DNA of 64,000 bases from an archaeon (GCA_024274875.1 JAJSAH010000017.1:34897-98896), one strand, 5' to 3'; numbered from the stretch's first letter, positions 2,170 through 62,133 are shown. Notes: generated by a model not told the origin, from the letters alone. Numbers and translations are program-made.

Positions 2170-2535
2170 ATGATGGCGAACATAAAAATGGAATTCGTAT
2201 CATCAAAGGCGCTCAGCAGCATGGAGAGCAGTGCGCGCGTAAAATACCTTCTAAGTGTTATAAGGAAAGGATATATCATAGTTCTTGAAGAAAAACTCGA
2301 CCCAAATGAAGAGCGATTGCTCATAGAAAAGACGATGCAAATTGTTGACAGCAAATTTACTGGCATAGAAATATCAAGCTTGGGAATGCAAACGGAAAGT
2401 TGGAAGAATGCCATAATAAAATTATTGGGGGGAAAAACTAGCGGATTAACAGTTATCGGCCCAGCAAAACTTATAAAAACTATAAAAAACGATCAAGAGA
2501 AGATTAACTTAATGGCAGGGCTTAAAGGTGATTGA
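2170..2535 (+). CDS. DUF2073-like conserved archaeal protein
   Basis: 121 aa. The stretch VKYLLSVIRKGYIIVLEEKLDPNEERLLIEKTMQ...FTGIEISS matches my memory of the DUF2073 family pattern. An AGGTGA SD lies upstream. Confidence 0.7.
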   Translation: MMANIKMEFVSSKALSSMESSARVKYLLSVIRKGYIIVLEEKLDPNEERLLIEKTMQIVDSKFTGIEISSLGMQTESWKNAIIKLLGGKTSGLTVIGPAKLIKTIKNDQEKINLMAGLKGD

Positions 2536-2822
2536 TGTTGGTTGTGTATCACAAATGCATGAAGTGCGGCAAAGAGTACTCTAGCGATGAACTTAGCAAA
2601 TTAAAATCTTGCAAAGTATGCAACGGGAATACATTTATGTTTAAGGCTAAAGCTGTGAAGATTAAGCGCAATGCGCCAACAAAAAATGATACTGATGCGG
2701 ACATTAAAGTGCTTGGAGAGGGCGTGTTTGAAGTAAATGTTGCTGCTGCAGCGCATAGGGAACCCATAATAATAGAAGGTGATGAAGGGGTATTTTTCAT
2801 AAAATTTCCAAAAAAGAGATGA
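2535..2822 (+). CDS. Zn-ribbon protein (DUF2072-like)
   Basis: Carries CMKCG...CKVCNG. The ATG overlaps the upstream TGA (TTGATG), which indicates translational coupling. Confidence 0.65.
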   Translation: MLVVYHKCMKCGKEYSSDELSKLKSCKVCNGNTFMFKAKAVKIKRNAPTKNDTDADIKVLGEGVFEVNVAAAAHREPIIIEGDEGVFFIKFPKKR

Positions 2823-7538: not shown

Positions 7539-11083
<3,545 letters not shown>

Positions 11084-11091
11084 ACTAACAC

Positions 11092-12939
11092 CTACCTCTT
11101 ATCACCCGTTCTCAAACGCGGGAATACATTAAGAGACTTAATCTCATCGAGCAATAACTTGAATGCATAACTCATCTCAATCTCATCCATGCGAGTGCCT
11201 TTGCAAATTGGGCAATATTCTCTGCGCTTTGAGTAATCATACACGCCAAGCGAACCGCAGTCCGCGCATACCCTGACAATGGTCTTATCACTCTCTTCAA
11301 GCAACCTATCCTTAATCAACTGCGATGCGCCATAACCAATTAAACAATCCCGCTCCATCTCACCAAATCTCAATCCGCCTTCTCTTGCCTTGCCCTCCGT
11401 CGGCTGATGAGTAAGCAGTTGCACAGGACCCCTGCTTCTAACATGCATCTTGTTGGATACAAGATGATGAAGCCTCTGATAATATATAACGCCTATGAAG
11501 ATTGTTGCTTTATACTTCTCCCCAGTAATCCCATCATACAGAACCTCTTCGCCGCCTTCCTCAAACCCATATTTCTTCAAAACTGCGCGGAGCTCGTCCT
11601 CAGGAGTTCCAGAAAACATCGTGGAATCAACATACTCGCCATCTAATGCAGATGCCTTGCCGCCAAGCATCTCAAGTATATGGCCTGCAGTCATACGGCT
11701 TGGGATAGCGTGGGGATTAATTATTAAATCAGGCACGACACCGCTCTTCGTGAAGGGCAAATCCTCCTGCGGAGCGATATAGCTTATTACGCCTTTCTGG
11801 CCATGCCTGGAAGCGAACTTATCGCCTACCTCAGGCACTTTAAGAGACCTTAATTTTACTTTAACTAACTTGTTGCCTGCTAAACTCTCTGTAAGCATCA
11901 CACTGTCCACAGTAGCATAATCACCACCTTTTGCAGTTACAGAGTTCTCCCTTCGTTTCTCCTCAGTAATGCCAAAAGTGGCAACCTCTTCCATAAAACG
12001 GGGAGGCGATACCTTGCCTATCAGCACATCGCGCGGCTTAACTTCCACCTCGGGCATTATAATGCCGTCCTCATCAAGATTGCGATACAACTCTTCTTCT
12101 CGGTAGCCCATTATGTTTGGGTTGGGAACCATTAACTTGTCCTTCTGACCGCCAGGATACCTGCGCTCCTCAGTTTCATAGGTTTTATAGAAAACTGATC
12201 GCGAAAGAGCGCGTTCAACAGAATTCTTGTTCACAACAACCGCATCGCTCATGTTGTATCCATAGTAACTCATAACAGCAACAACGAAATTCTGGCCTGC
12301 AGGCCTCTTATCATAATTCAACGCGCTGTATGATGCGCTTTGAACTAGAGGAACCTGCGGATAGAATAATATGTGAGCGCGCGAATCAAGCCGGTAGTTG
12401 AAATTAACTGCATACAAACCTAAAGATTGCTTCATCATAGAAGCAGCCATAGTTAATCTAGGTGACGAGTTATGATCTGGGTATGGAATCGTAGATACGA
12501 TTGCGCCTGTTATGCTTGCAGGATTTATCTCAAGATGCGTGTGATCCGAAGTGAGCTCGGATTCATCCATCGCAATATATGAAAGAGAATCCTCTTCCTC
12601 GCTATCTAAATAATCGATAACGCCCTCTGCAACCAAATCATCCCATGTGATTTCACCGCTCTTAAGCTTTTCAAGGTGTTCTTCGGTTAAAAGAGGCTTG
12701 CCATTCTTAACAACTATGTAGGGCCTCCTAAGGCGGCCTCCAGTAGTGTTTAAATGAACTTCTCCGGTTTTCTTGTTGTAAGAAATGTTTAAGTTTGGGG
12801 TGAGCTCGCGAATGCTTCTCTTTTCAAGTATCGATTTAACCAGCTCATCTCCATTATCATGAAAGCCTAAATAAATGCCATTGAGATATACAACCACCCT
12901 TTTGGATTGGCTCCTGGTTTGTTTTGATTTCGACATCAT
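11092..12939 (-). CDS. rpoB1: DNA-directed RNA polymerase subunit B' (Rpo2C)
   Basis: 615 aa with GDKFASRHGQKGV, LRFGEMERDCL and a C-terminal CxxC...CxxC. Confidence 0.97.
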   Translation of the reverse strand: MMSKSKQTRSQSKRVVVYLNGIYLGFHDNGDELVKSILEKRSIRELTPNLNISYNKKTGEVHLNTTGGRLRRPYIVVKNGKPLLTEEHLEKLKSGEITWDDLVAEGVIDYLDSEEEDSLSYIAMDESELTSDHTHLEINPASITGAIVSTIPYPDHNSSPRLTMAASMMKQSLGLYAVNFNYRLDSRAHILFYPQVPLVQSASYSALNYDKRPAGQNFVVAVMSYYGYNMSDAVVVNKNSVERALSRSVFYKTYETEERRYPGGQKDKLMVPNPNIMGYREEELYRNLDEDGIIMPEVEVKPRDVLIGKVSPPRFMEEVATFGITEEKRRENSVTAKGGDYATVDSVMLTESLAGNKLVKVKLRSLKVPEVGDKFASRHGQKGVISYIAPQEDLPFTKSGVVPDLIINPHAIPSRMTAGHILEMLGGKASALDGEYVDSTMFSGTPEDELRAVLKKYGFEEGGEEVLYDGITGEKYKATIFIGVIYYQRLHHLVSNKMHVRSRGPVQLLTHQPTEGKAREGGLRFGEMERDCLIGYGASQLIKDRLLEESDKTIVRVCADCGSLGVYDYSKRREYCPICKGTRMDEIEMSYAFKLLLDEIKSLNVFPRLRTGDKR

Positions 12940-12947
12940 TTCACCTT

Positions 12948-13643
12948 CTACTCTGCAACCTTGCTCTCCCTAAGAAAGCGTATTATCTTGCCGTCATCAG
13001 CAGCAGATGTTGGGAGAGACACCTCAGTCATAAGCGCGAAATTCTTTACAAGAGAACATGAGGGGCCTTCAGGAGTCTCAGCAATGCATACCTTTCCCCA
13101 CTGAGTTCCATGGAGATCGCGCGCCTTGAAATGCGGGTGAGACCTGCTCAAAGGAGAGATTAACCTGCGCATGTGCGAGTTTGTGGAGAAGAAATTCGTG
13201 CGGTCCAACATTTGAGATACACCTGTCTGCCCTGCAATCCAGTTGCCCGTCGCAAGCGCATACCTAATCCTATCAGTGAACGCATCTGGCCGAATCGCTG
13301 TATGCGCAGAAATGCGCCTGCCCCTAGCAACACTGCGCTCCAATTGATATGTTACATCTTTAATCAAGAAATGGAATGCATACCTAAACAGCTCCTGCAT
13401 CAATTCCCCAGCAAGTTTTATACGTTTGTTCATATAATGATCCCTATCGTCCTCAACAATCTTTTTGTTCGCAACATAGATTGTTCGCTCAATCATGCCT
13501 GCTAAGTAATACGCCTTAGCTATGCGGGACTCAGGATCAGTGCCTAGGTGAGGAAGCAAGTATGTGTCCACAAGTATTTCAGCGCGCTTAAGCCTAAATT
13601 CTTTCGCTTGGCCAGGAGCTGCTTTTCTACCCACATAATCCAA
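12948..13643 (-). CDS. rpoB2: RNA polymerase subunit B'' (Rpo2N), C-terminal part, downstream of an in-frame TAA
   Basis: 231 aa with LLPHLG, ATGNW, RTNF..., HGTQWGKVC..ETPEG. It lies in the same frame as 13650..14414. The only nearby in-frame start is TTG 13643-13641, and no SD precedes it. Confidence 0.9.
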   Translation of the reverse strand: MDYVGRKAAPGQAKEFRLKRAEILVDTYLLPHLGTDPESRIAKAYYLAGMIERTIYVANKKIVEDDRDHYMNKRIKLAGELMQELFRYAFHFLIKDVTYQLERSVARGRRISAHTAIRPDAFTDRIRYALATGNWIAGQTGVSQMLDRTNFFSTNSHMRRLISPLSRSHPHFKARDLHGTQWGKVCIAETPEGPSCSLVKNFALMTEVSLPTSAADDGKIIRFLRESKVAE

Positions 13644-13649
13644 TGCATC

Positions 13650-14414
13650 TTAATAGGTTTTGCTCGCATCTATCTCCAAATTGTACAAAATTTCAGACCT
13701 TATGGCAACATCATCTGAAAACGCATTCAAAATCTCTTTGTCAGTCTTCAATCCAAGTATGCGCAAAAAGGGTATGACTGATACTGATGGGGGCGCAGCA
13801 GGAAATGACAGCTGAAGCTTGCCATCCTTTGTCCTATCTATGCTGCACCTTGCCCTAAACCCAAACCTTGTTGAAAACACTTTTGCATTCACAACGCCTT
13901 TCACTTTATCCATGCTGACTATCTTGCGGTTTGGAACCAAATCTTCTAAACTGACAAAAATCTTCTCAGTGCCATTCACAATGAAATACCCGCCCGGATC
14001 CAAGGGATCCTCGCCTAAGTCAAGCAGCTCATTCTTGCCCAAACCATTAAGATGGCAGGGTTTGGATTTAACCATTATGGGCAACTGCCCTATAAAAACT
14101 TCTTCCATATCCCTCTCTATGCCATTAATGGTTGGAAAAATTTCAAGGAAGATGGGAGATGAGTAGGTTAAGTTCCTCATCCTCGCTTCCATAGGAGTGA
14201 TGGATCTTCTTGAGCCATCTGCCTCCTGAACTGTTGGCGGTTCAATGCGCACATTCCCAAGCTTGAACGAATAACCCTCTATGCCTGGTTCGATCACATC
14301 TATGGAACGAACAACCTCACGCATGCCATGCTCGACAAAGCGGTTGAATGAATCAATGTGCTGCTTCGCAGGAGGATTTGACTTAAGATATATAGACATA
14401 AGCTCTTTCTTCAT
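13650..14414 (-). CDS. rpoB2: RNA polymerase subunit B'' (Rpo2N), N-terminal part, ending at an in-frame TAA (13652-13650)
   Basis: 254 aa with QHIDSFN, RNLTYS, GQLPIMVKS and DPGGYFIVNGTEK. Together with the downstream part it totals 486 codons, the normal B'' length. Confidence 0.9.
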   Translation of the reverse strand: MKKELMSIYLKSNPPAKQHIDSFNRFVEHGMREVVRSIDVIEPGIEGYSFKLGNVRIEPPTVQEADGSRRSITPMEARMRNLTYSSPIFLEIFPTINGIERDMEEVFIGQLPIMVKSKPCHLNGLGKNELLDLGEDPLDPGGYFIVNGTEKIFVSLEDLVPNRKIVSMDKVKGVVNAKVFSTRFGFRARCSIDRTKDGKLQLSFPAAPPSVSVIPFLRILGLKTDKEILNAFSDDVAIRSEILYNLEIDASKTY

Positions 14415-14438: not shown

Positions 14439-14681
14439 TTAAACAACCAAACGGTAGTATATAACTTTACCTGTGGGCTCTTCTCTGTAAATCCTTATCA
14501 CATCGCCTTCCTTAGCACGAATGGCTTTTATCGCAGGATCTGTGCTCAATATCTTCGGAAGATGCTTCTTGGAATCAATTTTAAACTGCTTCAAAACGGA
14601 GTCAACCTCAGAATCAGGCACTATTTCGTGCTTAGGAACCAAAACATGATCTAACACATTAAATTTTCTTCGCTTGCTCAA
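14439..14681 (-). CDS. rpoH: RNA polymerase subunit H (Rpo5)
   Basis: 80 aa with HVLVPKHEIV...LPKI...DP. It is the first gene of the rpo operon. Confidence 0.9.
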   Translation of the reverse strand: MSKRRKFNVLDHVLVPKHEIVPDSEVDSVLKQFKIDSKKHLPKILSTDPAIKAIRAKEGDVIRIYREEPTGKVIYYRLVV

Positions 14682-17832: not shown

Positions 17833-17949
17833 TGCCAACGGCCATAGGGAAGGGGAAACGCCTGTTCCCATTCCGAACACAGAAGCTAAGCCCTTCCACG
17901 GTGTTGCTGGTACTGCCCTTCGGGCGGGAAGGCGCACTGCTGTTGGCAC
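17833..17949 (+). rRNA. rrf: 5S ribosomal RNA, not linked to 16S/23S within this window
   Basis: Contains GCCAACGGCCATAGGG...CCCATTCCGAACACAGAAGCTAAGCCC...GTTGGCA. The terminal helix closes as GCCAAC/GTTGGC. Confidence 0.9.
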
Positions 17950-19240: not shown

Positions 19241-19813
19241 ATGAGATTGGTTGATATGTTTAACAGAATCAAATCATCAGGAAAGTTGGTTTATGGAATA
19301 AATGAACTGAGCAATCTCCTAGGCATCAGAAAAAATGTGCTAAGCATATATGTGAACAGAATGTGCAAACAAGGGCTTGCAAACAGAATCGGTAGGAAAA
19401 TTGTGTTCACGGACAATGATTTTGTAATCGCTTCACAACTCATAGAGCCATCTTATATATCAATTCACAGCGCCTTATACTTGCACAAAGTAATACAACA
19501 AATACCGCAAAAAATCGAATCTGTCAATCCTGCAAACACCTTCAAAATAGATGGATATATATACTATAAAATCAATCCAAAACTATTCTTTGGATATGAA
19601 AAAAAGAGGTTTGCTGAAAGTTATGTGTTTTTGGCAACTCCCGAGAAAGCGGTTTTGGACGGAATTTATCTCTCAAAGATACCTCTAAACATATTGCCGG
19701 AAATAATTGAATACTTAGACAAAAGAGTTCTAAAAAAAACTGCTGAACGGATGAAAAAAACCTCTGTTAGAGGCACAAAAAAAACTTATAAAATCATAGA
19801 GAAGTGGTTATGA
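19241..19813 (+). CDS. abiEi: AbiEi-like antitoxin / transcriptional regulator (type IV TA)
   Basis: About 190 aa, sitting immediately upstream of and overlapping an AbiEii-family gene. The N-terminal region looks like a winged helix. The ORF track starts at TTG 19220. Confidence 0.65.
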   Translation: MRLVDMFNRIKSSGKLVYGINELSNLLGIRKNVLSIYVNRMCKQGLANRIGRKIVFTDNDFVIASQLIEPSYISIHSALYLHKVIQQIPQKIESVNPANTFKIDGYIYYKINPKLFFGYEKKRFAESYVFLATPEKAVLDGIYLSKIPLNILPEIIEYLDKRVLKKTAERMKKTSVRGTKKTYKIIEKWL

Positions 19814-20568
19814 TGCTAACGCGTGATGAACTAATAAGCATTGCAAAACAGTTCGGCAACAAACCATGGCAACAGGAAAAACATTATGTGCAGAGCGCTG
19901 TAATTTACTCCATTGCAGACCTCCCTTTAGTTTTCAAAGGGGGCACATATCTTTGGTTCTTCCATGGACTGCCAAGGTTCTCAGAAGATTTGGATTTTAC
20001 TTCTACCGGTAAGATCTCACTGAAGACCATCGCTGAAAAAGTTAGAAGAGGATTGGGCATGTTCGGAATGCATTCAGAAATCAGTCAATCAAAAACAAAA
20101 GAGAAAAAAAATTCAATGATATTGAGAATCGATGCAAAAGGGCCATTATACGCTAATCATTTATCAAAAACATTCGTCTACATAGAAATTAGCAGAAGAG
20201 AAAAATTGCTGCTCAAACCGATAAATCTGATTCTGAGAATGGATTATTACATGATTCCGCAGAAAGCTGTGTTGGGCATGAACTTATCTGAAGTTGCCGC
20301 AGAGAAAGTCAGAGCAATTTTAACAAGAGATAAGGCAAGAGATGTCTATGACCTGCATTTTCTGGTTAAATATAAGGGCATTAAGTTTGATCCAGACCTT
20401 GTTAATGCAAAACTCTCATATTACGGGTTAAAATATGATAAGAAAAAGTTCATATCTAAATTGAATAAGATTGAAGAATATTATGCTGATGAATTGTCAG
20501 TGCTAACAAACAATCCCATCCCTGATTTCAGCAAGGTAAAGGGTTTGCTGGCTGAATGGGTTGGTTAA
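19810..20568 (+). CDS. abiEii: Nucleotidyltransferase AbiEii/AbiGii-family toxin (DUF1814)
   Basis: Contains EKHYVQ...LVFKGGTYL...RFSEDLDFT, characteristic of AbiEii. The ATGA overlaps the abiEi stop. Confidence 0.82.
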   Translation: MMLTRDELISIAKQFGNKPWQQEKHYVQSAVIYSIADLPLVFKGGTYLWFFHGLPRFSEDLDFTSTGKISLKTIAEKVRRGLGMFGMHSEISQSKTKEKKNSMILRIDAKGPLYANHLSKTFVYIEISRREKLLLKPINLILRMDYYMIPQKAVLGMNLSEVAAEKVRAILTRDKARDVYDLHFLVKYKGIKFDPDLVNAKLSYYGLKYDKKKFISKLNKIEEYYADELSVLTNNPIPDFSKVKGLLAEWVG

Positions 20569-21396: not shown

Positions 21397-22356
21397 ATGG
21401 AATTGAGAAATAAAACAACTGTTGCAATAAAACCAAAACCTCCTTACAATTTCGATGCTAACTTTCATAAGCCGTCGCATTTCCCGTCATCAGATAACTG
21501 CTGGGAAAAAGGAAAATACTGGATAACTATGGTTTGGAAAGGCAGAGTGTTAGGGTTGAAGTTTGAAAATATGGGGACAATAGGAAAACCTGAAATTAGA
21601 GCAAGCATATACTCAAAGAAAAAATTATCAAAAAAATTTGTTGATGAATTGGTTGAAGAAATTAGGTGGAGGTTTAATTTTGATTCAGATATTTCTGGGT
21701 TTCATAAAAAGTTCGGGAAGAGTGGGCTCTTGGGAAAATTTATAAGAAAATGGAAAGGCATGAAGCCAGTGGCAGCCAATTCTCTGTATGAAACATTAGT
21801 GATATACATAGTTCTTCAAAACGCAACCGTTAGAAGATCAGTGCAAATGCTTGAAAACTTGTTTAAACGGTTCGGAAAGAAAGTAAAATTTGACCGGAAA
21901 ATTATGTCTGCATTCTGGGAGCCGGAAGAGATTGCAAAAGCTGATGAGCAGGAGTTAAGGGATTTGAAGGTTGGGTACAGGGCTAAATTTCTTAAAAGGA
22001 TCTCTGAGCAGTTGGCAAATAATGAAATAGATGAGTTTGCGCTTAGGAAAATGGCAAAGGAAGATGTTAAAAAAGAGATGTTAAAATTATATGGGATTGG
22101 GCCTGCATCAATTGAATACCTGCTTTTTGAGGATTTTTATTTTTATGATGCGCTGGAAACAATACCGCCCTGGGAACAGAAAATATTGTCAAGGTTGATA
22201 TTCAATAGGAAAACAGTTCCTGCTGAAAAAATACTGAAATTTTTTATGAAATTTAAACCATACCAAAAATTAGCATTCCATTATGTTTGGGAAGATTTGT
22301 TCTGGAGAAGGAAGCATCAGCATATTGAATGGCTGGAAAAGGAGATAAGGTTATGA
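21397..22356 (+). CDS. HhH-GPD superfamily DNA glycosylase (AlkA-like)
   Basis: Contains PPYNFDANF at the N-terminus and the helix-hairpin-helix LKLYGIGPASIEYLL. ATG 21397 is preferred over the longer track ORF, which overlaps the divergent gene. Confidence 0.72.
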   Translation: MELRNKTTVAIKPKPPYNFDANFHKPSHFPSSDNCWEKGKYWITMVWKGRVLGLKFENMGTIGKPEIRASIYSKKKLSKKFVDELVEEIRWRFNFDSDISGFHKKFGKSGLLGKFIRKWKGMKPVAANSLYETLVIYIVLQNATVRRSVQMLENLFKRFGKKVKFDRKIMSAFWEPEEIAKADEQELRDLKVGYRAKFLKRISEQLANNEIDEFALRKMAKEDVKKEMLKLYGIGPASIEYLLFEDFYFYDALETIPPWEQKILSRLIFNRKTVPAEKILKFFMKFKPYQKLAFHYVWEDLFWRRKHQHIEWLEKEIRL

Positions 22357-23142
22357 TTCTTCATGATATGCGCATAAAACAATATCCGCGCTTCCATTTG
22401 AAACCTTTATGCCCCTAAAATACTTGCAAACAGAAACATTCTTTACGGCGCATTTGTGCTCATTAGATTTTTCAGCTATATTCCAAGGGCACCTGTCCTG
22501 CTTCCAGCTTATTTTGTTTTCAGATGTTGTTAAATCTATATCCATGTTCGCCCCTTTCAATTCTATTATTTTTTCGTTTTTCTCACCAAGCAAAGACCTA
22601 ACTTTTTTAAGGATTAAATCAAATCTGCAATATCCTGCTTTCTCATTAAAATGGCCTGCATTCTTAACAAGAATTAAATCAACCCCTAAATTATTTGCAA
22701 GATGTTATGCTTTCTCTAAAGGAACATAGGGATCATTATCGGAGTGATACACATAAAATTTCTTACAATTTTGTCTTATCTTAGACCAATCAAAGTTCGG
22801 TTTAATGAAAGATTTATTGATGTTATCAAAATCAGGATTTTCCAGCAGGTCTATAAATCCTGAAACAAAGAAAGCTGCCTTGATTGGTTTGTTCTGCATT
22901 TCAAGAATGTTTAGCAAAAATGCAACTCCTAAACTATGACCAATAATAATAGAATTTTCGTTCAGATATTGTTCATAACCCTTAAAAATTTTGAGCCAAT
23001 TTTGAAGTGATTGATTTGCAGGAGTTGGAAATTTTGGAACAAAAACTCTGCAACCCAATCTTTCAAGCTCGCATTTGAGCCAGGGAAACCAATTTTCACC
23101 AGGATTTCCATACGCACCATGAATAATGAAAATGTTGGGCAT
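22351..23142 (-). pseudogene. RBBP9/YdeN-type serine hydrolase interrupted by an in-frame TAA (22707-22705). The frame stays open into a C-terminal Cys-rich extension.
   Basis: The catalytic Ser (GHSLG) and Asp (SDNDPYVP) come before the stop. The catalytic His (NAGHFN) comes after it, in the same frame (own translation of 22594-22704). There is no in-frame ATG, GTG or TTG before the His. Confidence 0.7.
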
Positions 23143-23192
23143 GGCAGAATATTGCTTGGCAAAATATTTAAGCATAATAGAGAAACAAAATC

Positions 23193-23965: not shown

Positions 23966-24130
23966 AGCCCCGTCGTCTAGTGGTCAAGGATGGCAGGCTC
24001 TGGACGAATGGCCCCCAGCGCGGCCCTTCGCAACCCACGGCAACCAGCCCTTATGGGGAAACCTGCAGACTGCGGTTCGAAAGAAGGGCGCCGTGCCCTT
24101 AATGAAAAACCGGAAATCCGCACGGGGCTA
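23966..24130 (+). tRNA. tRNA-Gln (anticodon CUG) with two introns: 24004-24060 (canonical 37/38, 57 nt) and 24082-24116 (T-loop 59/60, 35 nt)
   Basis: Hand fold: acceptor AGCCCCG/CGGGGCT, D-arm GTCT-AGTGGTCAA-GGAT, anticodon arm GCAGG-CTCTGG|A-CCTGC, T-arm TGCGG-TTCGAA|T-CCGCA. Discriminator is A. Confidence 0.85.
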
Positions 24131-24132
24131 TG

Positions 24133-25521
24133 CTAATTTTTCTCCATAAATTTCTTGGACGCGCTTAATATGTACCCAACCAATTTTTCCATTGATTTGG
24201 ATTTGTATTCAGTTGTATGCGGATTAACCGACACTACATTATCTCCCTTTTTGTGAGTTATGATTAATATCACATTCATCTTTTTCAACTGGTTTTTAAT
24301 TTTACTAGGTGATTTGCTCGATTGCGGGTTCCTCTTGAAATTTTTCTCAGCAGCACTCAAGGGGAAATATTTATTGCCGACTGCCTGTTTTCTTGAGAAC
24401 AATCTCAAGCCATCAACAAGGAATATAATCATATCCTCAACAAATTCCCTGTCTAATGAGTGCTCTTTCTCAACTGCTGTCAGGTATTTGTCAGGAATTT
24501 TAAAATTGTACTTCTCAACTACAAAACTCTTCTCCTTGGCAGCGGTTGTAGACACATTTTCTTGAATATTTGGTACTGACACAGGAACATGCGAAGTTTT
24601 CTCAGAAGGAAGTGAAGATGCGAACTTATATATCACATCACATAACTGCTCATGGTTTTCCAGCGCAAGCTTGTTCTGCTTAACAAAAGCAAGAAAATCT
24701 TCCCTCTCTTTTGGATCACTGAAGAAATTGTTTACTTCAGCAATCGCATCATATGCCTTCTTCTCTTCCTCACTCTGCTTCGCCTCTAAAGAGCGCGCAT
24801 CATCTTTCAACTTGACCGTGCCTTCGCTTAAAGATGGCTTGCTAGCGCTTTCTTTTAACTCAACTGCCCCTTCACTCAAAGATGGCTTGTTAAAACTTGG
24901 CTTAACATCTTCTTTCAAAGATGGCTTGAATACATCTATAACAACATCCATGTGGAACTCAAGAAAGGAATGAGAGATTAGTTTAGATAATGCGCAAAAT
25001 GTGCCATACTTACCATGATTAGGAAAAGGAATCAATGATTTGCGTATTATCCTTAATATCGTGCGCGCATCCTCCTTATCCATATCTTTTATTATATCTT
25101 TAGTTAGACTTTTACCATAATACTTGATTATCGGAAACCTTGATTTGGTAGGAGGCACATCGTATTTGATGTAAGAAGGAATGCATATAAGATCCTCAGG
25201 GTCGAGGAATGCCAATCTAAGCACAGCCATATCTTGTTTGCTAAGCGAATATTTTCTTGCGATGCGCATGATCTTTTTCTCAGTTATGTCCCCCAACTTA
25301 CTCACTGCTGAATCAACTGCTTCTGAGGAATAATGCTTCTGATCCAGCAAAATTATTGCGGATTTCTCAATGGAAGAAATTGTGCGAGCGGGCGGTTCAA
25401 GAAGAGTTTCAATGTAATTTTTTGCAAAATCCTTCTTAATGCTGCGCATCGTGTCTCTGCTTATGTTGCTGCCCTTCAATGCACTCAGCAATTCCATGAA
25501 TTTCTTGTATTTGGGATTCAT
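24133..25521 (-). CDS. Hypothetical protein with an internal KPSLSEG tandem repeat
   Basis: 462-aa ORF. No motif recognised. Confidence 0.45.
   Translation of the reverse strand: MNPKYKKFMELLSALKGSNISRDTMRSIKKDFAKNYIETLLEPPARTISSIEKSAIILLDQKHYSSEAVDSAVSKLGDITEKKIMRIARKYSLSKQDMAVLRLAFLDPEDLICIPSYIKYDVPPTKSRFPIIKYYGKSLTKDIIKDMDKEDARTILRIIRKSLIPFPNHGKYGTFCALSKLISHSFLEFHMDVVIDVFKPSLKEDVKPSFNKPSLSEGAVELKESASKPSLSEGTVKLKDDARSLEAKQSEEEKKAYDAIAEVNNFFSDPKEREDFLAFVKQNKLALENHEQLCDVIYKFASSLPSEKTSHVPVSVPNIQENVSTTAAKEKSFVVEKYNFKIPDKYLTAVEKEHSLDREFVEDMIIFLVDGLRLFSRKQAVGNKYFPLSAAEKNFKRNPQSSKSPSKIKNQLKKMNVILIITHKKGDNVVSVNPHTTEYKSKSMEKLVGYILSASKKFMEKN
24796..24930. repeat. Imperfect tandem coding repeat (about 48-bp unit, 2.8 copies)
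   Basis: aaagatggctt recurs at about 24830, 24878 and 24918. It encodes KPSLSEGAVELKESAS / KPSLSEGTVKLKDDA / KPSLKEDV. Confidence 0.6.
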
Positions 25522-25555: not shown

Positions 25556-25939
25556 CTAAGGTTTATTTTTCCACAATCCATGCACATTGCAATGCTCCCT
25601 AACTAATTTAACATCACCTATCTGCACTGAAAATGACGCCTCAGGTAAAATTCCTGGATGCAAATATTTTCGGTATACCCTTCCATCAGTAAACACCTCG
25701 ATCCACTCAATGTAATGATTGTCTTCCATAGGATGGGGCACTGAACCAACCTTAACCACAATTCCCTCATCTGATTTCTCGACTACGGGAACATGCTTCT
25801 CTAATCCTTGTTCAGAAGTTTTTTCATGCAATATTTCCATTTCTTTCCCGCAACACACCAACCTGCCTTTACCGCCAACAAGCACTTCAACAATGTTCCC
25901 GCAAACACTGCATTTGTATATTTCATTGCGCTTGGCCAT
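25556..25939 (-). CDS. dfx: Desulfoferrodoxin (2Fe superoxide reductase)
   Basis: 127 aa. The N-terminus has CSVCGN...CCG (desulforedoxin-like). The C-terminus has the SOR centre ligands H..H...C..H ([18 protein letters not shown]). Confidence 0.9.
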
Positions 25940-25948
25940 GAAAACACC

Positions 25949-26515
25949 CTATATTTTTCCCACTAAATCCAAGGCTGGCTTGAGCGTTTCTTTTCCGGGC
26001 TCCCAACTCGCAGGGCATACCTCTCCATTATGCTCTGCAACATACTTTGAGGCTTGCAGCTTTCTGAGTATTTCATGAGCGCTTCTGCCTATGCTGTTGT
26101 CATGAATTTCAATTGATTTTAGCACCCAATTCGGATCGATTATGAAAGTTGCTCTCAACGAAACGCCTTCTTCATCTATGTATGTTCCAAACTGCCGGCA
26201 TATCTTTCCCGAAGGGTCGGCAAGCATTGGATAGCGTATCTTTCCTATCGTGCTCGAATCATCATGCCAAGCTTTATGCACATACGCAGTATCAGTGCTT
26301 ATGCTTAAAATCTCTGCACCTTCTTTCTGAAATATCTCATAATGATCAGCAAGCTCGCCTAATTCAGTAGGGCACACAAATGTGAAATCTGCTGGGTAGA
26401 AAGCCAAAACAACCCACTTGCCCCTGTAATCCGAGAGTTTTACTCTCTTAATTTCATCATTTATGTATGCGTCTGTCTCAAAATCTTCAACAACATGTCC
26501 AATTTTTACATTCAT
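25949..26515 (-). CDS. Peroxiredoxin (AhpC/TSA family)
   Basis: Contains FYPADFTFVCPTE and EVCPASW. The ATG at 26515 gives the normal length; the track ORF carries an implausible N-terminal extension. Confidence 0.9.
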   Translation of the reverse strand: MNVKIGHVVEDFETDAYINDEIKRVKLSDYRGKWVVLAFYPADFTFVCPTELGELADHYEIFQKEGAEILSISTDTAYVHKAWHDDSSTIGKIRYPMLADPSGKICRQFGTYIDEEGVSLRATFIIDPNWVLKSIEIHDNSIGRSAHEILRKLQASKYVAEHNGEVCPASWEPGKETLKPALDLVGKI

Positions 26516-30809: not shown

Positions 30810-31928
30810 ATGTATATTCCTAACAAACTTATGGAAGTTGCCGACTTAGAGTATTATTATTTAGCAAAGGAAATGAATGAGAAGCTGAGCGGTTGCAGGA
30901 TTAAAAAAGTGTTCCAGATTTCTGAGAATGCGTTCAAGATTAATGTTGCGGGGGCTAATGGAAAGCATGAGATGCTCATAAAACTGCCTGAATACGCTAC
31001 ATTGACTTCTAGAGAAATTGCTGCTCCAAAAACACCATCAAATTTCTCTATGCTGTTAAGAAAGCAGTTATCCAATGGAATAATTGCCTGCGTCAAGCAG
31101 CACGATTTTGAGAGGATAATTGAGATTGAGGTGGGAGCAGGAGAGATGATGCGCAAACTTATACTTGAGCTGTTCTCCAAAGGAAATATCATAATATGCA
31201 ATGATAAGGAAATAATTACTGCGCTGTATAGGAAGGAGGAATGGAAAAGCAGGGTTATAAGAAAAGGAATAAAGTATGAATATCCGCCTGCAAAAATTTC
31301 CCCTTTCGATGCAAAACCTGAACACTTGGGCTTAAACTCAAAAAACACAATTATGGCTGGCGTGCTGTCCCAAGTATCGCTTGGCCCAAAATACCTAGAA
31401 GAAGCATTCGCGCGCGTTGGAATCAATCCTGCGATGAAGGTTGAGCTGTCTGATAACGAAAAGCAATGCCTGCATCAAGCAATTTTAGAAGTGTGCAGCG
31501 AGGGAACATTCATTATGTATTTAAAGGATGGCGCGCCCACAGATTATGCTGTGTGCAACCTGTCAAAGTACAAAAATTATGAACATAAAATATTCGATTC
31601 AGCCGCTGAATTGATTGATGCATTCTATTCGCCTGCGGAAACCAGTGCTTCAGATGAAACCTCTGAAAAAAAAGATGAAATCATTGCGCATCAATTTGCT
31701 GAGAGATTAAACGCGCTCAAATTCGAGGCGCAGTTATCCAGAGCTAAGGGAGATTGCATATATGAGCACTTTTCTGAGATTGAGGAGTTAGTTGAGGAGA
31801 TAAGAGCGCTCAGAAAAAAAGGCATGAATGATACGGAGATAAACAAACTGATTGATAAAAAGTTTCCAGGCATGCGCGCAATTATTAAAGGAAACACGCT
31901 GAAAATTAAGATGAAAGCGCGAGAGTGA
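30810..31928 (+). CDS. NFACT-N (FbpA/Rqc2-NEMF-like) protein lacking the NFACT-R/DUF814 region
   Basis: The N-terminus L..E...L.G.RI.KVFQ...F.I followed by an HhH-like segment follows the NFACT-N pattern. At 372 aa it is much shorter than the ~650 aa I recall for typical archaeal homologues. Confidence 0.65.
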   Translation: MYIPNKLMEVADLEYYYLAKEMNEKLSGCRIKKVFQISENAFKINVAGANGKHEMLIKLPEYATLTSREIAAPKTPSNFSMLLRKQLSNGIIACVKQHDFERIIEIEVGAGEMMRKLILELFSKGNIIICNDKEIITALYRKEEWKSRVIRKGIKYEYPPAKISPFDAKPEHLGLNSKNTIMAGVLSQVSLGPKYLEEAFARVGINPAMKVELSDNEKQCLHQAILEVCSEGTFIMYLKDGAPTDYAVCNLSKYKNYEHKIFDSAAELIDAFYSPAETSASDETSEKKDEIIAHQFAERLNALKFEAQLSRAKGDCIYEHFSEIEELVEEIRALRKKGMNDTEINKLIDKKFPGMRAIIKGNTLKIKMKARE

Positions 31929-35899: not shown

Positions 35900-36535
35900 A
35901 TGAGGATTGACTGGAAAGCCGCATACCTGCTGTATCTGTTGTTTGCTGGTTCGCTGCTTGCGCCTGCTATATTGGCTCCCGTGTTTGCAACTGCTGGAGT
36001 CGATTATTTTGCAGCAGTTATATATAACTTCACAAAACCTTTATGCCACCAATACATATACAGATCCTATTGCATTTTCAACAGCAACGGAACGCTGAGC
36101 GTGGAAGAATGCATCCCGAAAAGCGAAGAGAATGCAAGCTTTGTGCAGACAAAATTTTCCGGAAGGGTTTCCAACCTAAGCAAGTTTGTGTACAGGAGAG
36201 AAGATGTTGGAGTGAATAGAAGCGAGTATGTGGAAAGATACGGCAAGCGAGGATATAAGTTCGCAGTTTGCGCAAGAGACCTTTTTCAGTATGCAGGTTT
36301 GTTGGTCGCTGCAATTGCATACATTCCATTAAGGAAACATGTTAAGTCGCTTCCATCAACGCTGTACATCGTGATTGCAGTTATTCCGCTTGCGATCGAT
36401 GGAACAGGGCAGATGATTGGGTTATGGGAAAGTTTGAATGTTATGAGAGCGATAACTGGGTTCATCGCAGGAACAGTGCTGGGATATTACATACTGTTCC
36501 TTCTTGCAGACATATTCGAAAACCTAAAATTCTAG
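35900..36535 (+). CDS. DUF2085-like integral membrane protein
   Basis: Contains the CHQ..YRS motif (KPLCHQYIYRSY) and several TM segments. Confidence 0.6.
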   Translation: MRIDWKAAYLLYLLFAGSLLAPAILAPVFATAGVDYFAAVIYNFTKPLCHQYIYRSYCIFNSNGTLSVEECIPKSEENASFVQTKFSGRVSNLSKFVYRREDVGVNRSEYVERYGKRGYKFAVCARDLFQYAGLLVAAIAYIPLRKHVKSLPSTLYIVIAVIPLAIDGTGQMIGLWESLNVMRAITGFIAGTVLGYYILFLLADIFENLKF

Positions 36536-36570
36536 AATCATTTTTAAATATTAATGGTTCTAATCCACTT

Positions 36571-37989
36571 ATGGATTATTTGAGTTTCGGCACTACCGCC
36601 GAAATAAAAGTTCCTAAGAATCCATTAGAGCAAGTTATAGGGCAGGAGCATGTGCTTGAGATTGCTCACATAGTTGCGAGGCAGAAGCGCCATCTGTTGT
36701 TGGTTGGGCCTCCAGGAACTGGGAAAAGTTTTATTGCGGGCGCGATTGCATCGCTCATCCCGCCGCCTACTCAGCAGATTGCAGTGGTCAGCAATGAAGA
36801 CAACCCCGACAGGCCGATTTTGGAGATTAAAACACGGGAACTGATTGAGAAAGAAAAGCGCGAGATGAGGCGCGCTAAATTGGTTGACCCGCGTGATGTT
36901 CCGTATTATGTTTCAGAAAGGTTGGGGTTCAGATGCAGGAAATGCGGGACAATCAGTGATCCTGAATCAAACATATGTTTATATTGCGGTGCTGAAAAAT
37001 ACCGAAAAACCAAGAATATTGAGGATATGTTCTCTGATATGCCGCGCATAACCCGCGATGATAAAGTGTTCATGAAGCGCAGAAATGGAAAAAGTGGTGA
37101 AGAGGAATATATATATGAGCGCAGGGGAAACAAGGTTAAGGTATACAAAAGCAAGCTCATGGATATTTATGAACAGCAAAGAAAGGTTATAGTGCCTATA
37201 GATAGGAAAACATTCGTGCAAGCGACTGGTGCAAGCGAAGCTGAATTGCTTGGTGATGTGAGGCATGATCCGTATGGAGGGCATCCTGAGATAGGGATAC
37301 CGCCTCATGAGCGCGTAATTCCCGGCGCAATACACGAAGCGCATGAAGGCGTGCTTTTTATAGATGAGTTGTCAACGCTCGGCGAACTGCAAAGATATCT
37401 TCTAACAGCTATGCAAGAAAAGAAATTTCCCATACTCGGCAGGAACACGACAAGCACAGGAGCAGTTGTTAGAGTGGATAATGTGCCATGCGATTTTGTG
37501 CTCGTTGGCGCAATAAACATAAATGATGTAGGTTCAATACTTCCGCCGCTTAGATCGCGAATTATCGGTTCGGGTTATGAGGTATTGCTGAACACTGTTA
37601 TGGAGGACTGCGATGAAAACCGTATGAAACTCGTGCAGTTCACTGCACAAGAGATAAGCAAAGATAAGAGGATACCTCACGCAACTGCTGATGCATGCGA
37701 ACAAATAATAAGGGAGGCGCAGTTAAGGGCAAGGCAGATTGATGGGAAGGATGGCCTGACCTTGCGATTGAGAGATTTAAGCGGAATTATTAAGATGGCA
37801 GGCGATATAGCAATTGTAGAGAGCTCAGAAACAATAGATAAAAATCATGTGCGCAAAGCAATACAAAGGGCAAGGTCTATTGAAGAACAGCTTTTGGATA
37901 GTTATGGAAGCGCATGGAAAGCAGGAATGAGCGATTATGCTACGCTCAGAAGGAAAAAGAGAGATGGATTCACAAGCGAGATTATATAA
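36571..37989 (+). CDS. LonB-like AAA+ ATPase without a protease domain. A Zn-ribbon insert sits where LonB has its TM hairpin.
   Basis: Contains VIGQEHV...LLLVGPPGTGKSF (Walker A), VLFIDEL (Walker B) and the CRKCG...CLYCG insert. The protein ends about 25 aa after the AAA+ lid, and I could find no Ser-Lys protease region. Confidence 0.72.
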   Translation: MDYLSFGTTAEIKVPKNPLEQVIGQEHVLEIAHIVARQKRHLLLVGPPGTGKSFIAGAIASLIPPPTQQIAVVSNEDNPDRPILEIKTRELIEKEKREMRRAKLVDPRDVPYYVSERLGFRCRKCGTISDPESNICLYCGAEKYRKTKNIEDMFSDMPRITRDDKVFMKRRNGKSGEEEYIYERRGNKVKVYKSKLMDIYEQQRKVIVPIDRKTFVQATGASEAELLGDVRHDPYGGHPEIGIPPHERVIPGAIHEAHEGVLFIDELSTLGELQRYLLTAMQEKKFPILGRNTTSTGAVVRVDNVPCDFVLVGAININDVGSILPPLRSRIIGSGYEVLLNTVMEDCDENRMKLVQFTAQEISKDKRIPHATADACEQIIREAQLRARQIDGKDGLTLRLRDLSGIIKMAGDIAIVESSETIDKNHVRKAIQRARSIEEQLLDSYGSAWKAGMSDYATLRRKKRDGFTSEII

Positions 37990-39171
37990 TTAAGAAAACA
38001 TTTTTTCGATTATTTCCTTAATTTTGCGCGCATCGTATGTTAGCTTAATGAATCTTGTCTGGCCTCGCGTGCCTTTGCCCGATGATGAGAGCGTAATCAA
38101 GCCAAGCATGTCTAAATCGTGCAAATATTCCGAAAACCATCTTGCGCTCCGCGGAGAAACATTGAGCGATTTGCACGCGTTTGAATAACTCTCATAAACT
38201 TCACCAGACATGAATACATCTTTCCCGTCATCGCCAAGGCGCTTGTATGAACTGCCTTTCAGTTGCAGCAAGGATATGCCATACAGCGCAATTTGCTCAT
38301 GCTGCGGAAGCGTGGCGATTGCCTCCACAACCAAATCTTCATCAACACTGCGCCTAGCCTGCTCAACATGGCCTTCAGTAACCTTGGCATCGCAATTATC
38401 ATTCGCAAGCATACCTGCTTTATGGATCAGCTTTAAAGCGTATCTTGCATCGCCAGTCTCCCTTGCAGCAAGCGCGGCAGCCATGCGGAGCGCCGCCTGG
38501 TCGCAGGTTCCCTTCTTAAACGCGTTTTCAGCGCGCTGCTTTATGATTTCATACAATTGCGTAGCGTTGTACGGGCGGAACACAATCTCCTTCTCATATA
38601 GGGCGCTTTTGCTGCGCGGATCAAGCTTATCTTTAAAATGCAGCCTGTTAGATATGCCAATTATGGAAATGCTTCCCTGCTCAAGCTCATCATTAATGCG
38701 GGTTAAAGTGTAAACTAAATCATCAACATCCCTAACCATATCCACTTCATCGAGCACTACCACCAAATGCATGTTATTTTCTTCAACCCATTCCAACATC
38801 GATTCATACAACTTCGATAAGGGGTAGCCGATCTTTGCTTCATACCTGCATATCTCGCTCACAACTTTAAACACAATTTTATAGCGAGAATCATAAATCC
38901 TGCAGTTCATGTATTTCATCAAAGCATTCTTCTTCATCTGATTAAACTTATCCATAACGCTTTTTGAACAGCAGGTTTTCCCTGTGCCCGTTTTGCCGTA
39001 CAAAAACATGTTTTTTGGTTTGGTGTTCTTGAGCGCAGGCATAACCGTTTTCATTATAGATTCAATTTCTTTCTCTCTGTGAGGCAGCACCTCTGGAACA
39101 TAATGCGGCGATAGGACATTCATATCGTTGAAAATTCCACTCTGTTGCATGAGATCTTCAAACGTTAACAT
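37990..39171 (-). CDS. cdc6: Orc1/Cdc6 replication initiator
   Basis: Contains LYGKTGTGKT (Walker A), VVLDEVD (Walker B) and a C-terminal winged helix. ATG 39171 is preferred. Confidence 0.92.
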   Translation of the reverse strand: MLTFEDLMQQSGIFNDMNVLSPHYVPEVLPHREKEIESIMKTVMPALKNTKPKNMFLYGKTGTGKTCCSKSVMDKFNQMKKNALMKYMNCRIYDSRYKIVFKVVSEICRYEAKIGYPLSKLYESMLEWVEENNMHLVVVLDEVDMVRDVDDLVYTLTRINDELEQGSISIIGISNRLHFKDKLDPRSKSALYEKEIVFRPYNATQLYEIIKQRAENAFKKGTCDQAALRMAAALAARETGDARYALKLIHKAGMLANDNCDAKVTEGHVEQARRSVDEDLVVEAIATLPQHEQIALYGISLLQLKGSSYKRLGDDGKDVFMSGEVYESYSNACKSLNVSPRSARWFSEYLHDLDMLGLITLSSSGKGTRGQTRFIKLTYDARKIKEIIEKMFS

Positions 39172-39305
39172 GGATACCCTCCAAAAAGCCGTGAGTATTT
39201 TAGAGCAGTAAAACAATATATACTTAATTCGCCTTAGCGAAACGCTGCGCGAGAAGGCATTACATCTTTATATTCTTTATTGTTCCAATATAATACGGTG
39301 GTATC

Positions 39306-39671
39306 ATGGGAATGTTGCAAAAGTTTTCTGACGCTTTAGGGCTCGGCGGAAAAGAAATGAATGTGCAAGAATATCTTGATGGGGAGGATTTGGAGAACCT
39401 TGAGGATGAAGAGGAGGAAGCGCTTGCGTATGTGAAGCCTGTGGCGCTTGAAAGTCCTAATGTGATTCCTGAAATTAAGAATTAATTGCAGTCAGGCAAC
39501 CTGATTTTGTTGAACATCACACCTATGCTCAAAGATGAAAGAATGCTTTCAGATATCATCGATTCGCTGAAAACTTACATTAACTCAATAAAGGGAGATA
39601 TAGCAAGAATAGATAATGAGAAAATACTATTAACGCCTTCTAGAATGAAGATTGTTAAAAGAAGAAGATAA
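39306..39671 (+). CDS. sepF: Cell-division protein SepF homologue interrupted by an in-frame TAA at 39483-39485
   Basis: The sequence MGMLQKFSDALGLGG...AYVKPVALESPNVIPEIKN*LQSGNLILLNITPM...GDIARIDNEKILLTPSRMKI aligns across the stop to archaeal SepF (recalled Haloferax DVIAIKDAVYDGNLVIADIT...GDIV...ITP). It is 121 codons in total. Confidence 0.75.
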
Positions 39672-48643: not shown

Positions 48644-49108
48644 TCAAAGCCCATGGAGTTTAAGCAATTCTATCATATTGCGATTGTTGGAATGATATGC
48701 AAGCGTCATCAATGTTAAACCATCTAAGCAGGATTCAAGCTTCGCATGGTTCAGAATAAGGTGTTCTGCTACTTCAACACTGCCGCGAAAGCATGCATGC
48801 ATCAGCGCTGTCCATCCATAGTTGCTAACTGCATTCACAAAAACGCCATTTTCAACTAAGAACTTCACTGCATCGAGATTTCCATGAATGCTGAACCACA
48901 TCAATGGAGTAGCGCCTATGCCATCGCTCGCATTAATCTCTGCTCCTAAAGACAGCGCAACTTTTGCCAAGCGCAGGTCATTGTACCAGCCAGATTCAAA
49001 ATATTTTTGATTCAAGAATTCCAGAGTTTTCGAGTTGGGCTTTTTGAATCCAATTACTCTGAAAGCCCTCCTGCAAGTACCTGTTTTTCGGGCATGCTCA
49101 AAAACCAT
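48644..49108 (-). CDS. Ankyrin-repeat protein (about 3 repeats)
   Basis: Contains G.TPLMWFSIHGNLDAVKFLVENG and GWTALMHACFRGSVEVAEHLI. Confidence 0.8.
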   Translation of the reverse strand: MVFEHARKTGTCRRAFRVIGFKKPNSKTLEFLNQKYFESGWYNDLRLAKVALSLGAEINASDGIGATPLMWFSIHGNLDAVKFLVENGVFVNAVSNYGWTALMHACFRGSVEVAEHLILNHAKLESCLDGLTLMTLAYHSNNRNMIELLKLHGL

Positions 49109-49137
49109 AGAACATTTTTCACTGATAAAATTAAAAA

Positions 49138-50082
49138 TTATTCCTTAAGTATAATTTCGCTGGCCCTCTTGGCAAGCATGACTTGATCAACAACTTCTTT
49201 AAGAGAATCATACCCTTTCTCATTTATTACATCTATGGCGCTTATGCCGTCTCCATCTTTTTTGCGAGGGTCTGCGCCGTGCAATATTAAGAAATTTGCT
49301 ATCTCTATCCTGCCTCTAAGCAAGGCAAACAGTAATGGAGTTCTTCCTTCAATATTTGAAACATTCACATCTGCATTGTTTAGCACAAGAAACTTAACAA
49401 TATGCAAATGATTCTTCCAACAAGCATACATCAACGCAGTATCGCCATACTGGTTTGCATAATTCAAATCAGCGCCTCTTTTTGCAAGAACCTCAACAGC
49501 CCCGCCGCTGCCTTCCCAACATGCAGCCATGAGCGGTGTGGAACGCGTGCTATTCTCTAAATCAAGGATTGCGCCATTATCCAAAAGCAGATGAATTAAT
49601 GGCGTATCATTAGCTATGCATGAGATATGAAGCGGCGTATTTCCTTCTAAATTGGCCAGATTAACATCTGCATGCGCGCTAACCAAAATTTCAGCTGCCT
49701 CATAATGCCTGTTCTCGCACGCAACATGAAGCGCAGCATTTCCCATAATATTTTGATGGTTCACATCTGCATCATGGTTAACAAGAACGCGAACTATCCT
49801 CGCAAACCCTCTGCTGCTCGATTCAATCAGCGGAGTGTTTTTGTATGAATTCATCGTGTCAACATCAGCGCCTCTGAGAATGCTCTGCACAACTCTTTCA
49901 TAATTCCCATATACTGCGCTCATGTGCAATTGTTCATTAACGACCCTTTTATCCTCGCTTTTAGACATAATTCTCGATTTTATCTCATCACCATGCATCT
50001 TAGAAAAATCGTGCTCTGCAACTGGCTGCTTTTTCTTTTTAGTGAGCACAATTATTGCGCCTTTGCCAGATTTCTCTTTCAT
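49138..50082 (-). CDS. Ankyrin-repeat protein (about 7 repeats)
   Basis: Reiterated G.T.L..A......iv..Ll..gAdvN units throughout. Confidence 0.85.
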   Translation of the reverse strand: MKEKSGKGAIIVLTKKKKQPVAEHDFSKMHGDEIKSRIMSKSEDKRVVNEQLHMSAVYGNYERVVQSILRGADVDTMNSYKNTPLIESSSRGFARIVRVLVNHDADVNHQNIMGNAALHVACENRHYEAAEILVSAHADVNLANLEGNTPLHISCIANDTPLIHLLLDNGAILDLENSTRSTPLMAACWEGSGGAVEVLAKRGADLNYANQYGDTALMYACWKNHLHIVKFLVLNNADVNVSNIEGRTPLLFALLRGRIEIANFLILHGADPRKKDGDGISAIDVINEKGYDSLKEVVDQVMLAKRASEIILKE

Positions 50083-61862: not shown

Positions 61863-62133
61863 GCGAGCGGTTGGCGGCAGCTAACGGCGCCGCATTTTTG
61901 CGTGCGCTGAGGAAGGTCCGCCCACGCAGAGCTGAAACTTCCGTAAAGGAAGGGAAGGGAACAGAAACGAAACTGCCTTTGCCATACGGGATGAAGTTAT
62001 TCTGACATCGGCAATGGTTAGGTGAAACGGCCCTTCCGGATGCTGTGAGCGTGCAAGCCTTTGCGGCGCTTAGATTAATGCTGCGGGAACAAATTCCCTA
62101 AAAAAACAGAAGGCGGCCTATGCCAGCCGCTCT
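61863..62133 (+). ncRNA. rnpB: RNase P RNA (archaeal type A-like, about 270 nt)
   Basis: P1 pairs GAGCGGTTGGC (61865-75) with GCCAGCCGCTC (62122-32). CR-I is GAGGAAGGTCCGCCC, CR-V is ACAGAAGGCGGCCTA, and GGTGAAACGGC is internal. Confidence 0.8.

Follow-up and report, generated by a model that had tools for sequence, protein, structure and literature searches.

The division of the second-largest RNA polymerase subunit into separate B'' and B' chains is common to many archaeal lineages (PMC3655853). In a 64,000-nucleotide stretch of an archaeal contig (GCA_024274875.1 JAJSAH010000017.1:34897-98896; hereafter the window), the gene for B'' is itself interrupted by an in-frame TAA. An earlier note on this DNA offered two readings, namely that RpoB is assembled from three polypeptides or that the stop codon is read through to give a functional polymerase. 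The question addressed here is which of these holds, or whether the stop is a private, recent change in an otherwise normal gene.

The interrupted gene and its operon

The stop codon is found at window positions 13652..13650 on the minus strand and is codon 255 of rpoB''; the strand reads AGC AAA ACC TAT TAA GAT GCA TTG GAT TAT GTG. The ORF listing gives two ORFs in the same frame, one at 13650..14414 (254 aa, starting with ATG) and one at 12948..13643 (231 aa, starting with TTG). Re-reading of the strand together with this listing confirmed the sequence, the TAA, and the in-frame pair of 254 and 231 aa as first described. Read through the stop, rpoB'' comprises 488 codons and one internal stop, which agrees with the earlier statement that the two pieces add up to the normal B'' length of about 490 aa (homologues have 481–523 aa). 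The features of the locus are as follows.

7539-8552, minus strand: rpoA'', intact; rpoA' and rpoA'' together (7539..11083) carry Pfam Rpb1 domains 1–5
8549-11083, minus strand: rpoA', intact, sharing Pfam Rpb1 domains 1–5 with rpoA''
11092..12939, minus strand: rpoB' (Rpo2C), 615 aa, intact, with Pfam Rpb2 domains 4–7
12937..12947, minus strand: canonical B''/B' junction, made up of the 8-nt spacer AAGGTGAA (Shine-Dalgarno sequence, AGGTGA inside) and the ATG of rpoB'
12950..12948, minus strand: natural stop of rpoB'', TAG
12948..13649, minus strand: C-terminal part of rpoB'' (second half of the lobe, end of the protrusion, fork), matching Pfam Rpb2_2 (profile positions 104-190 of 190), Rpb2_1 (153-199), and Rpb2_3
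13643..13641 and 13634..13632, minus strand: possible restart codons TTG and GTG, 6 and 15 nt after the TAA
13650..13652, minus strand: in-frame TAA, aligned to E/D/A/Q/K in 120 homologues
13653..14414, minus strand: N-terminal ORF of rpoB'', 254 aa (protrusion part 1 and first half of the lobe), matching Pfam RNA_pol_Rpb2_1 (E=1e-44), with a GGTGAT Shine-Dalgarno sequence before its ATG
14439..14681, minus strand: rpoH (Rpo5), the first gene of the operon, matching Pfam RNA_pol_Rpb5_C

A phmmer comparison with RpoB of Thermococcus kodakarensis (4qiw_B) gave a single alignment that covers residues 6–467 and spans the stop (E=1e-160). The residue aligned to the stop is E271 in T. kodakarensis, Q in Pyrococcus, and D in Sulfolobus. 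Because the homology is unbroken across the TAA, the pair of 254 and 231 aa is no chance arrangement of ORFs. In a public collection of about 15 billion proteins, both pieces have been called, as proteins of 254 aa and 228 aa (the latter with a GTG start), from an NCBI-sourced contig of 118,373 bp. Hence, the stop exists in the deposited assembly, and gene callers divide the gene there. The two fragments, B', and RpoH are singleton clusters or singletons in this collection, all from the one NCBI contig.

The gene neighborhood is the classical archaeal cluster of PolB, rpoH, B'', B', A', A'', L30e, NusA, S12, S7, and EF-2. The canonical split places Pfam Rpb2 domains 1–3 in B'' and domains 4–7 in B', which has its own start codon and Shine-Dalgarno sequence. 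At this junction, the TAG at 12950..12948 is followed by AAGGTGAA and then by the ATG at 12939, in a different frame. The internal stop is therefore, as the earlier note had maintained, a break additional to and distinct from the ordinary junction at 12948/12939. The relatives keep the canonical split: the 120 homologues (481–523 aa) are annotated as B'', and the protein ends near residue 488 in 80 GTDB loci. With respect to the canonical archaeal split, then, the window has the same gene and operon order (rpoH-B''-B'-A'-A'') and is divided as its relatives are. The canonical break falls between Rpb2 domain 3 (fork) and domain 4 and is equipped with its own ATG and GGTG, whereas the TAA at 13652 lies within the lobe, is unique, and lacks initiation signals.

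To map the break, which the earlier note had proposed to do on a solved polymerase, Pfam domains were combined with an AlphaFold model, built of the intact protein of the closest relative and not of the broken protein. Pfam assigns Rpb2 domain 1 (protrusion) to the N-terminal piece, whereas the C-terminal piece carries domain 3 (fork) along with the last stretch of domain 1 and the latter half of domain 2. The global fold of the model is poor (pTM 0.48; the top Foldseek matches are still solved archaeal RNAP B chains, at TM 0.40), and local pLDDT is about 90 across residues 200–320. In the model, a helix (236–248) is followed by a loop (249–253) and a second helix (254–265); residue 255 sits in the first turn of this second helix, just after a loop of variable length, and is predicted to be probably exposed. 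The outcome of the mapping is mixed. With the poor global model in mind, the break coincides with a variable column at a loop-to-helix boundary, a permissive setting, yet it lies in the middle of the lobe (Pfam domain 2) and not between domains, and domain 1 is divided between the pieces; the mapping is not compelling in either direction. Since the protrusion is common to both pieces and the lobe is bisected, the fragments would need to co-fold intimately.

Relatives and selection on the two halves

The best matches are all B'' proteins of Micrarchaeota/Micrarchaeia (DPANN), 481–523 aa in length, and the window belongs to a Micrarchaeota genome bin. The same break, which the earlier note advised looking for in related genomes, did not turn up in any of them: none of the 120 best homologues is interrupted, and no stop stands at residue 255 in any of the 81 Micrarchaeota loci or, overall, of the 161 loci compared. 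The closest relative, P0001 from a Logan contig, shares 94% amino-acid and 79% nucleotide identity and has an intact protein of 488 aa with GAT at codon 255. A search of JGI metagenomes found no DNA of the same species, the best match having 72% identity, and the source genome did not come up among the GTDB representatives scanned. Among the sequences compared, the TAA is unique to this assembly. The column of the stop is variable in the 120 homologues (E35, A31, D20, Q14, and K13), and the codons at this position in 156 related loci include GAA (41), GAG (40), GAC (18), and GAT (16). Since relatives have GAA here more often than any other codon, the TAA is most simply derived from it by one G>T change on the coding strand.

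Compared with the locus of the nearest relative (L001), rpoB'' has 240 synonymous versus 30 nonsynonymous codon differences. The N-terminal ORF accounts for 121 versus 20 of these and the C-terminal part for 118 versus 9, the half behind the stop thus being the more constrained. Moreover, B'' deviates at only 3 of 183 strongly conserved columns, each time in a way common to relatives, and for B' the count is 5 of 217 conserved columns, with 4 of these deviations common to relatives. These codon comparisons indicate that both halves are under strong purifying selection. Signs of decay were lacking in rpoB'', with no frameshift, no further stop, intact conserved columns, and no relaxed constraint. 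A decaying pseudogene was rejected on these grounds, that is, the ratio of 240 to 30 differences, the lack of added lesions, and the conserved columns that were kept. The lack of decay entails that the lesion is either very recent or not biological.

Initiation signals, decoding, and a second in-frame TAA

Each of rpoH, B'', B', A', and A'' has a Shine-Dalgarno sequence of the GGTG/GGTGAT type 3–8 nt before its start. Before the TTG at 13643 and the GTG at 13634, the preceding sequence being aacctattaagatgcattggattat, neither GGTG nor GGAGG is present, and there is no ATG either. ATG, GTG, or TTG occurs by chance within residues 256–262 in 36% of relatives, and in the window TTG and GTG make up 26% of Leu codons and 26% of Val codons, respectively. 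At such frequencies, in relatives and in the codon usage of the window, we rejected the idea that the TTG and GTG are evolved start codons.

Decoding of the TAA as sense was likewise assessed. Folding of the 100 nt after the stop was no better than that of shuffled sequences (z=+0.85), giving no indication of a stimulatory RNA structure. In terms of what is expected of programmed readthrough, the stop is not conserved among orthologues and has no structure downstream. TAA is the main terminator in the window, where it ends 35 of 68 ORFs, and 93% of the sequence is coding when the standard code (code 11) is applied; reassignment of TAA was rejected on these two counts. ARAGORN found no suppressor tRNA in the 64-kb window, and the sole tRNA is a tRNA-Gln(CUG). 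This tRNA gene, at about 23976-24137 on the plus strand, fills a GC-rich gap, was missed by ARAGORN and Rfam, and is interrupted by two introns, the first behind position 37 and the second in the T-loop; removal of both inserts in silico leaves a clean cloverleaf of 73 nt. Two other GC-rich stretches inspected in the tRNA search are protein-coding.

The window was scanned for further in-frame lesions by considering every pair of ORFs in one frame and every extension of 30 or more codons past a stop. The scan of same-frame ORF pairs revealed one further case.

22705..22707, minus strand: second in-frame TAA, in a serine-hydrolase (PF06821) gene (22354-23175); the Pfam match spans the stop

This TAA lies upstream of the catalytic-His motif AGHFN. 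In 119 serine-hydrolase homologues (185 aa), the TAA column mostly holds E (55) or K (49), and the nearest relative has GAA at this position. The gene in the window also has no stop at the site usual for the homologues, the frame staying open for 78 further codons that encode a Cys/His-rich tail. The homologues of 185 aa (proteins P0126-P0244), with 62–79% identity, belong to Aenigmatarchaeota, Micrarchaeota, Nanoarchaeota, and Patescibacteria/Woesebacteria (CPR), a distribution which suggests that this hydrolase was recently transferred between domains among ultra-small symbionts.

The window thus has two TAA lesions in 64 kb, on the same strand and both compatible with GAA>TAA. G>T changes are the characteristic mark left by 8-oxoguanine damage, in cells as well as in sequencing libraries. 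Two lesions of this GAA-like>TAA type point to errors or mutations biased toward G>T and not to a designed feature of rpoB''. The two sites have no context in common (TAA-GAT versus TAA-CAT). A joint motif, as might accompany a methylation-linked error, was also sought and rejected; only the 6-mer AAGATG is found close to the two TAAs, with an offset that differs between the sites and in opposite orientation, and was judged coincidental.

No other broken or frameshifted conserved gene was found in Pfam scans of more than 60 ORFs. A pair of membrane-protein genes that could be taken for one broken gene consists of separate genes with their own Shine-Dalgarno sequences. The same is true of the genes for peroxiredoxin (AhpC/TSA) and desulfoferrodoxin, which lie in one frame at 25556-26515 on the minus strand and are separated by a TAG and 9 nt containing a Shine-Dalgarno sequence; these form a compact oxidative-stress pair, not a broken fusion. 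The other post-stop extension candidates turned out to be 5S rRNA, a tRNA, AT-rich intergenic sequence after the gene for OapC, and an intact methylase. An apparent stop in B' of one relative (L044) was dismissed, the tblastn alignment having extended upstream of the true start.

The same inventory of the window includes a stand-alone 5S rRNA (17834-17948, plus strand) and the archaeal RNase P RNA (61865-62132, plus strand), both above the Rfam gathering score. A Cdc6/Orc1 gene (37990-39171, minus strand) has a 458-nt noncoding stretch upstream (39172-39629), a candidate replication origin in which no clear ORB-type repeats were found. The genes for the origin-associated proteins OapB and OapC (2170-2822, plus strand) are about 35 kb from Cdc6/Orc1, and an AAA+ protein (Mg-chelatase/MCM-like; 36424-37989, plus strand) has an insert of about 140–180 aa between its Walker A segment (68–120) and its core (from about 258). 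An AbiEii-type nucleotidyltransferase toxin gene (19241-20568, plus strand) overlaps by 4 nt with an upstream ORF of 190 aa that has no Pfam match, and the two probably constitute a type IV toxin–antitoxin pair. Two neighboring ankyrin-repeat proteins (48644-50082, minus strand) are of a kind unusual in archaea and typical of host-associated microbes. A protein of 372 aa with an NFACT_N domain (Rqc2-like; 30810-31928, plus strand), directly followed by MetRS, covers positions 8–365 of the 456 in the Pfam NFACT_N profile and appears, by this comparison, to be C-terminally truncated.

In-frame stops in rpoB'' are also found elsewhere. Two unrelated metagenome contigs have them at invariant B'' residues (L084, S413*, nt 1895; L140, G268*, nt 1356). 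Both contigs are short, the stop is in each case about 100 nt or less from the end, and these two stops are probable assembly-end errors. Isolated nonsense codons in assembled rpoB'' occur at a level of roughly 1%, and the two cases demonstrate that such lesions do turn up in assemblies. The lesion studied here belongs to the same class, being isolated and nonconserved, and differs in lying deep inside a 118-kb contig instead of close to the end of a short one.

Weighing the explanations

The observations themselves are clear: the stop exists and is private to this assembly, the gene is conserved on either side of it, signals for restart or recoding are missing, and TAA is the normal terminator. 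From these we infer that the change is artefactual or not fixed. We consider it moderately likely that the TAA is a private and very recent single-base nonsense change, present as an artefact or as an unrepresentative minority allele in a gene that is otherwise normal. The path would be from GAA (Glu) to TAA by a G>T change on the coding strand, and it may have entered through an error of consensus or assembly, possibly as an artefact of the oxidative-damage type, or else with a deleterious variant picked by the assembler. The organism would then make an ordinary two-part RpoB, with a B'' of 488 aa and B', as its relatives do. The artefact reading is weakened by the position of the stop in the middle of a 118-kb contig. 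It is also weakened by the apparent accuracy of the assembly, judged from the lack of other frameshifts or broken conserved genes in more than 60 ORFs and from the clean conserved-column tests. Moreover, if both nonsense codons were errors, the 64 kb should contain some 40 substitution errors by a rough estimate, a high number for a short-read assembly with good coverage. A real mutation would have to be bypassed by reinitiation or leaky readthrough for a working polymerase to be made. That functional genes of this organism contain genuine in-frame TAAs (two or more within the 64 kb, both of those found being at Glu/Lys-type positions and followed by conserved sequence), which are expressed through ochre suppression or leaky termination or, for rpoB'', through a restart at the TTG or GTG, seems to us rather unlikely.

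We rate as unlikely the specific case of a real and fixed nonsense mutation with reinitiation at the TTG (+6 nt) or GTG (+15 nt), in which fragments of 254 aa and about 228–231 aa would co-assemble into a three-polypeptide RpoB, a nascent gene split. The downstream half is fully conserved, the break is at a variable and, in the model, probably exposed column at a loop-to-helix boundary with local pLDDT of about 90, and start-like codons are available in frame 6 and 15 nt past the stop. According to Severinov and colleagues, E. coli β can reportedly be split into fragments within the lobe-associated dispensable region I. This region (β-i4, in the β2/lobe domain) tolerates insertions and deletions (PMC2939025). 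The lobe of a second-largest subunit can thus be discontinuous with basic activity kept, although the tolerance in E. coli concerns a lineage-specific insert that is absent from archaeal B'', whereas the break described here is in conserved lobe sequence. The distances of 6 and 15 nt are within the range measured for termination–reinitiation in Haloferax by Huber et al. (PMC6728339, PMC10666635), where coupling still works at +5 nt, retains 40–60% efficiency at 13–14 nt (PMC10666635), and depends on the Shine-Dalgarno sequence to an extent that differs between genes (PMC6728339). Most native coupled pairs, however, are overlapping (−4 or −1 nt), and the TTG and GTG here, being without a Shine-Dalgarno sequence, are candidates for restart only. 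Lineage-specific split genes build up in DPANN archaea and are known from Nanoarchaeota (PMC3655853), and the parallels with these are a DPANN genome, an essential information-processing gene, and conceivably co-assembling fragments. Established split genes, on the other hand, are found in more than one genome or are separated with independent expression signals, and here the pieces are contiguous, in frame, one base from intact, and unshared. It also counts against a split that the site has neither a Shine-Dalgarno sequence nor an ATG, unlike every real junction in the operon; that start-like codons are there by chance in 36% of relatives; that fragments with a bisected lobe and a divided protrusion must co-fold intimately; and that an unrelated gene is broken by a TAA as well, which suggests mutation or error and not selection for a split. 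With the break in no relative and no initiation signals for the downstream piece, the proposal of a three-part RpoB was not borne out.

Partial readthrough of real TAAs, whether through leaky termination or with the help of an ochre suppressor encoded elsewhere in the genome (a tRNA for Glu, Lys, or Gln that has a UUA anticodon), so that full-length B'' and hydrolase are made, strikes us as improbable. Suppression would account for both TAAs at once, since both are at columns with Glu, Lys, or Gln in homologues, and the downstream parts are conserved in both genes, including the catalytic His motif of the hydrolase; a tRNA with two introns was overlooked here by ARAGORN and Rfam, so unusual tRNAs are easily missed in this lineage. 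Nevertheless, TAA is the commonest genuine terminator at a coding density of 93%, the rpoB'' stop occurs in no relative and has no stimulatory RNA structure, the two sites share no context, and the window encodes no tRNA other than tRNA-Gln(CUG). We know of no natural UAA suppression in archaea. As a case of recoding, then, readthrough of a stop that orthologues do not share and that has no recoding signal was not upheld. We regard as similarly improbable a real inactivating mutation, compensated by a second intact rpoB'' outside the window or carried by a nonviable or transient subpopulation whose allele dominated the assembly. The serine hydrolase does resemble a genuine young pseudogene, with a premature TAA and the normal stop lost, and only 64 kb of the genome were inspected; against this, a tblastn search of the 64-kb window found no second B'' copy (single match), and the C-terminal half is not under relaxed constraint. 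To our knowledge, rpoB is single-copy in archaea. An alternative genetic code with TAA assigned to an amino acid has next to no chance of being correct: it would fit two in-frame TAAs at conserved positions and is effectively refuted by terminator usage in the window, where the ORFs that end at TAA have sensible boundaries, usually with the next Shine-Dalgarno sequence and start within a few nucleotides, and EF-2, PolB, and MetRS end at TAA with complete Pfam domain coverage. The choice that the earlier note posed between three polypeptides and readthrough thus stands as a logical possibility but found no support for either branch, and it leaves out the private, recent change or assembly error that we favor.

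The practical consequence concerns data quality: a lone nonsense codon in an essential single-copy marker of a bin should be verified in the reads before it is interpreted or the marker is used in phylogenomics. The paired GAA-like>TAA lesions suggest a possible G>T-specific error or mutation process in this assembly. If the TAA were real and fixed, one possibility would be the first RNA polymerase with a three-chain second-largest subunit, with the break in the lobe, and thereby gene splitting caught in progress in a DPANN symbiont; the other would be natural UAA suppression, of which this would be the first sign in archaea.
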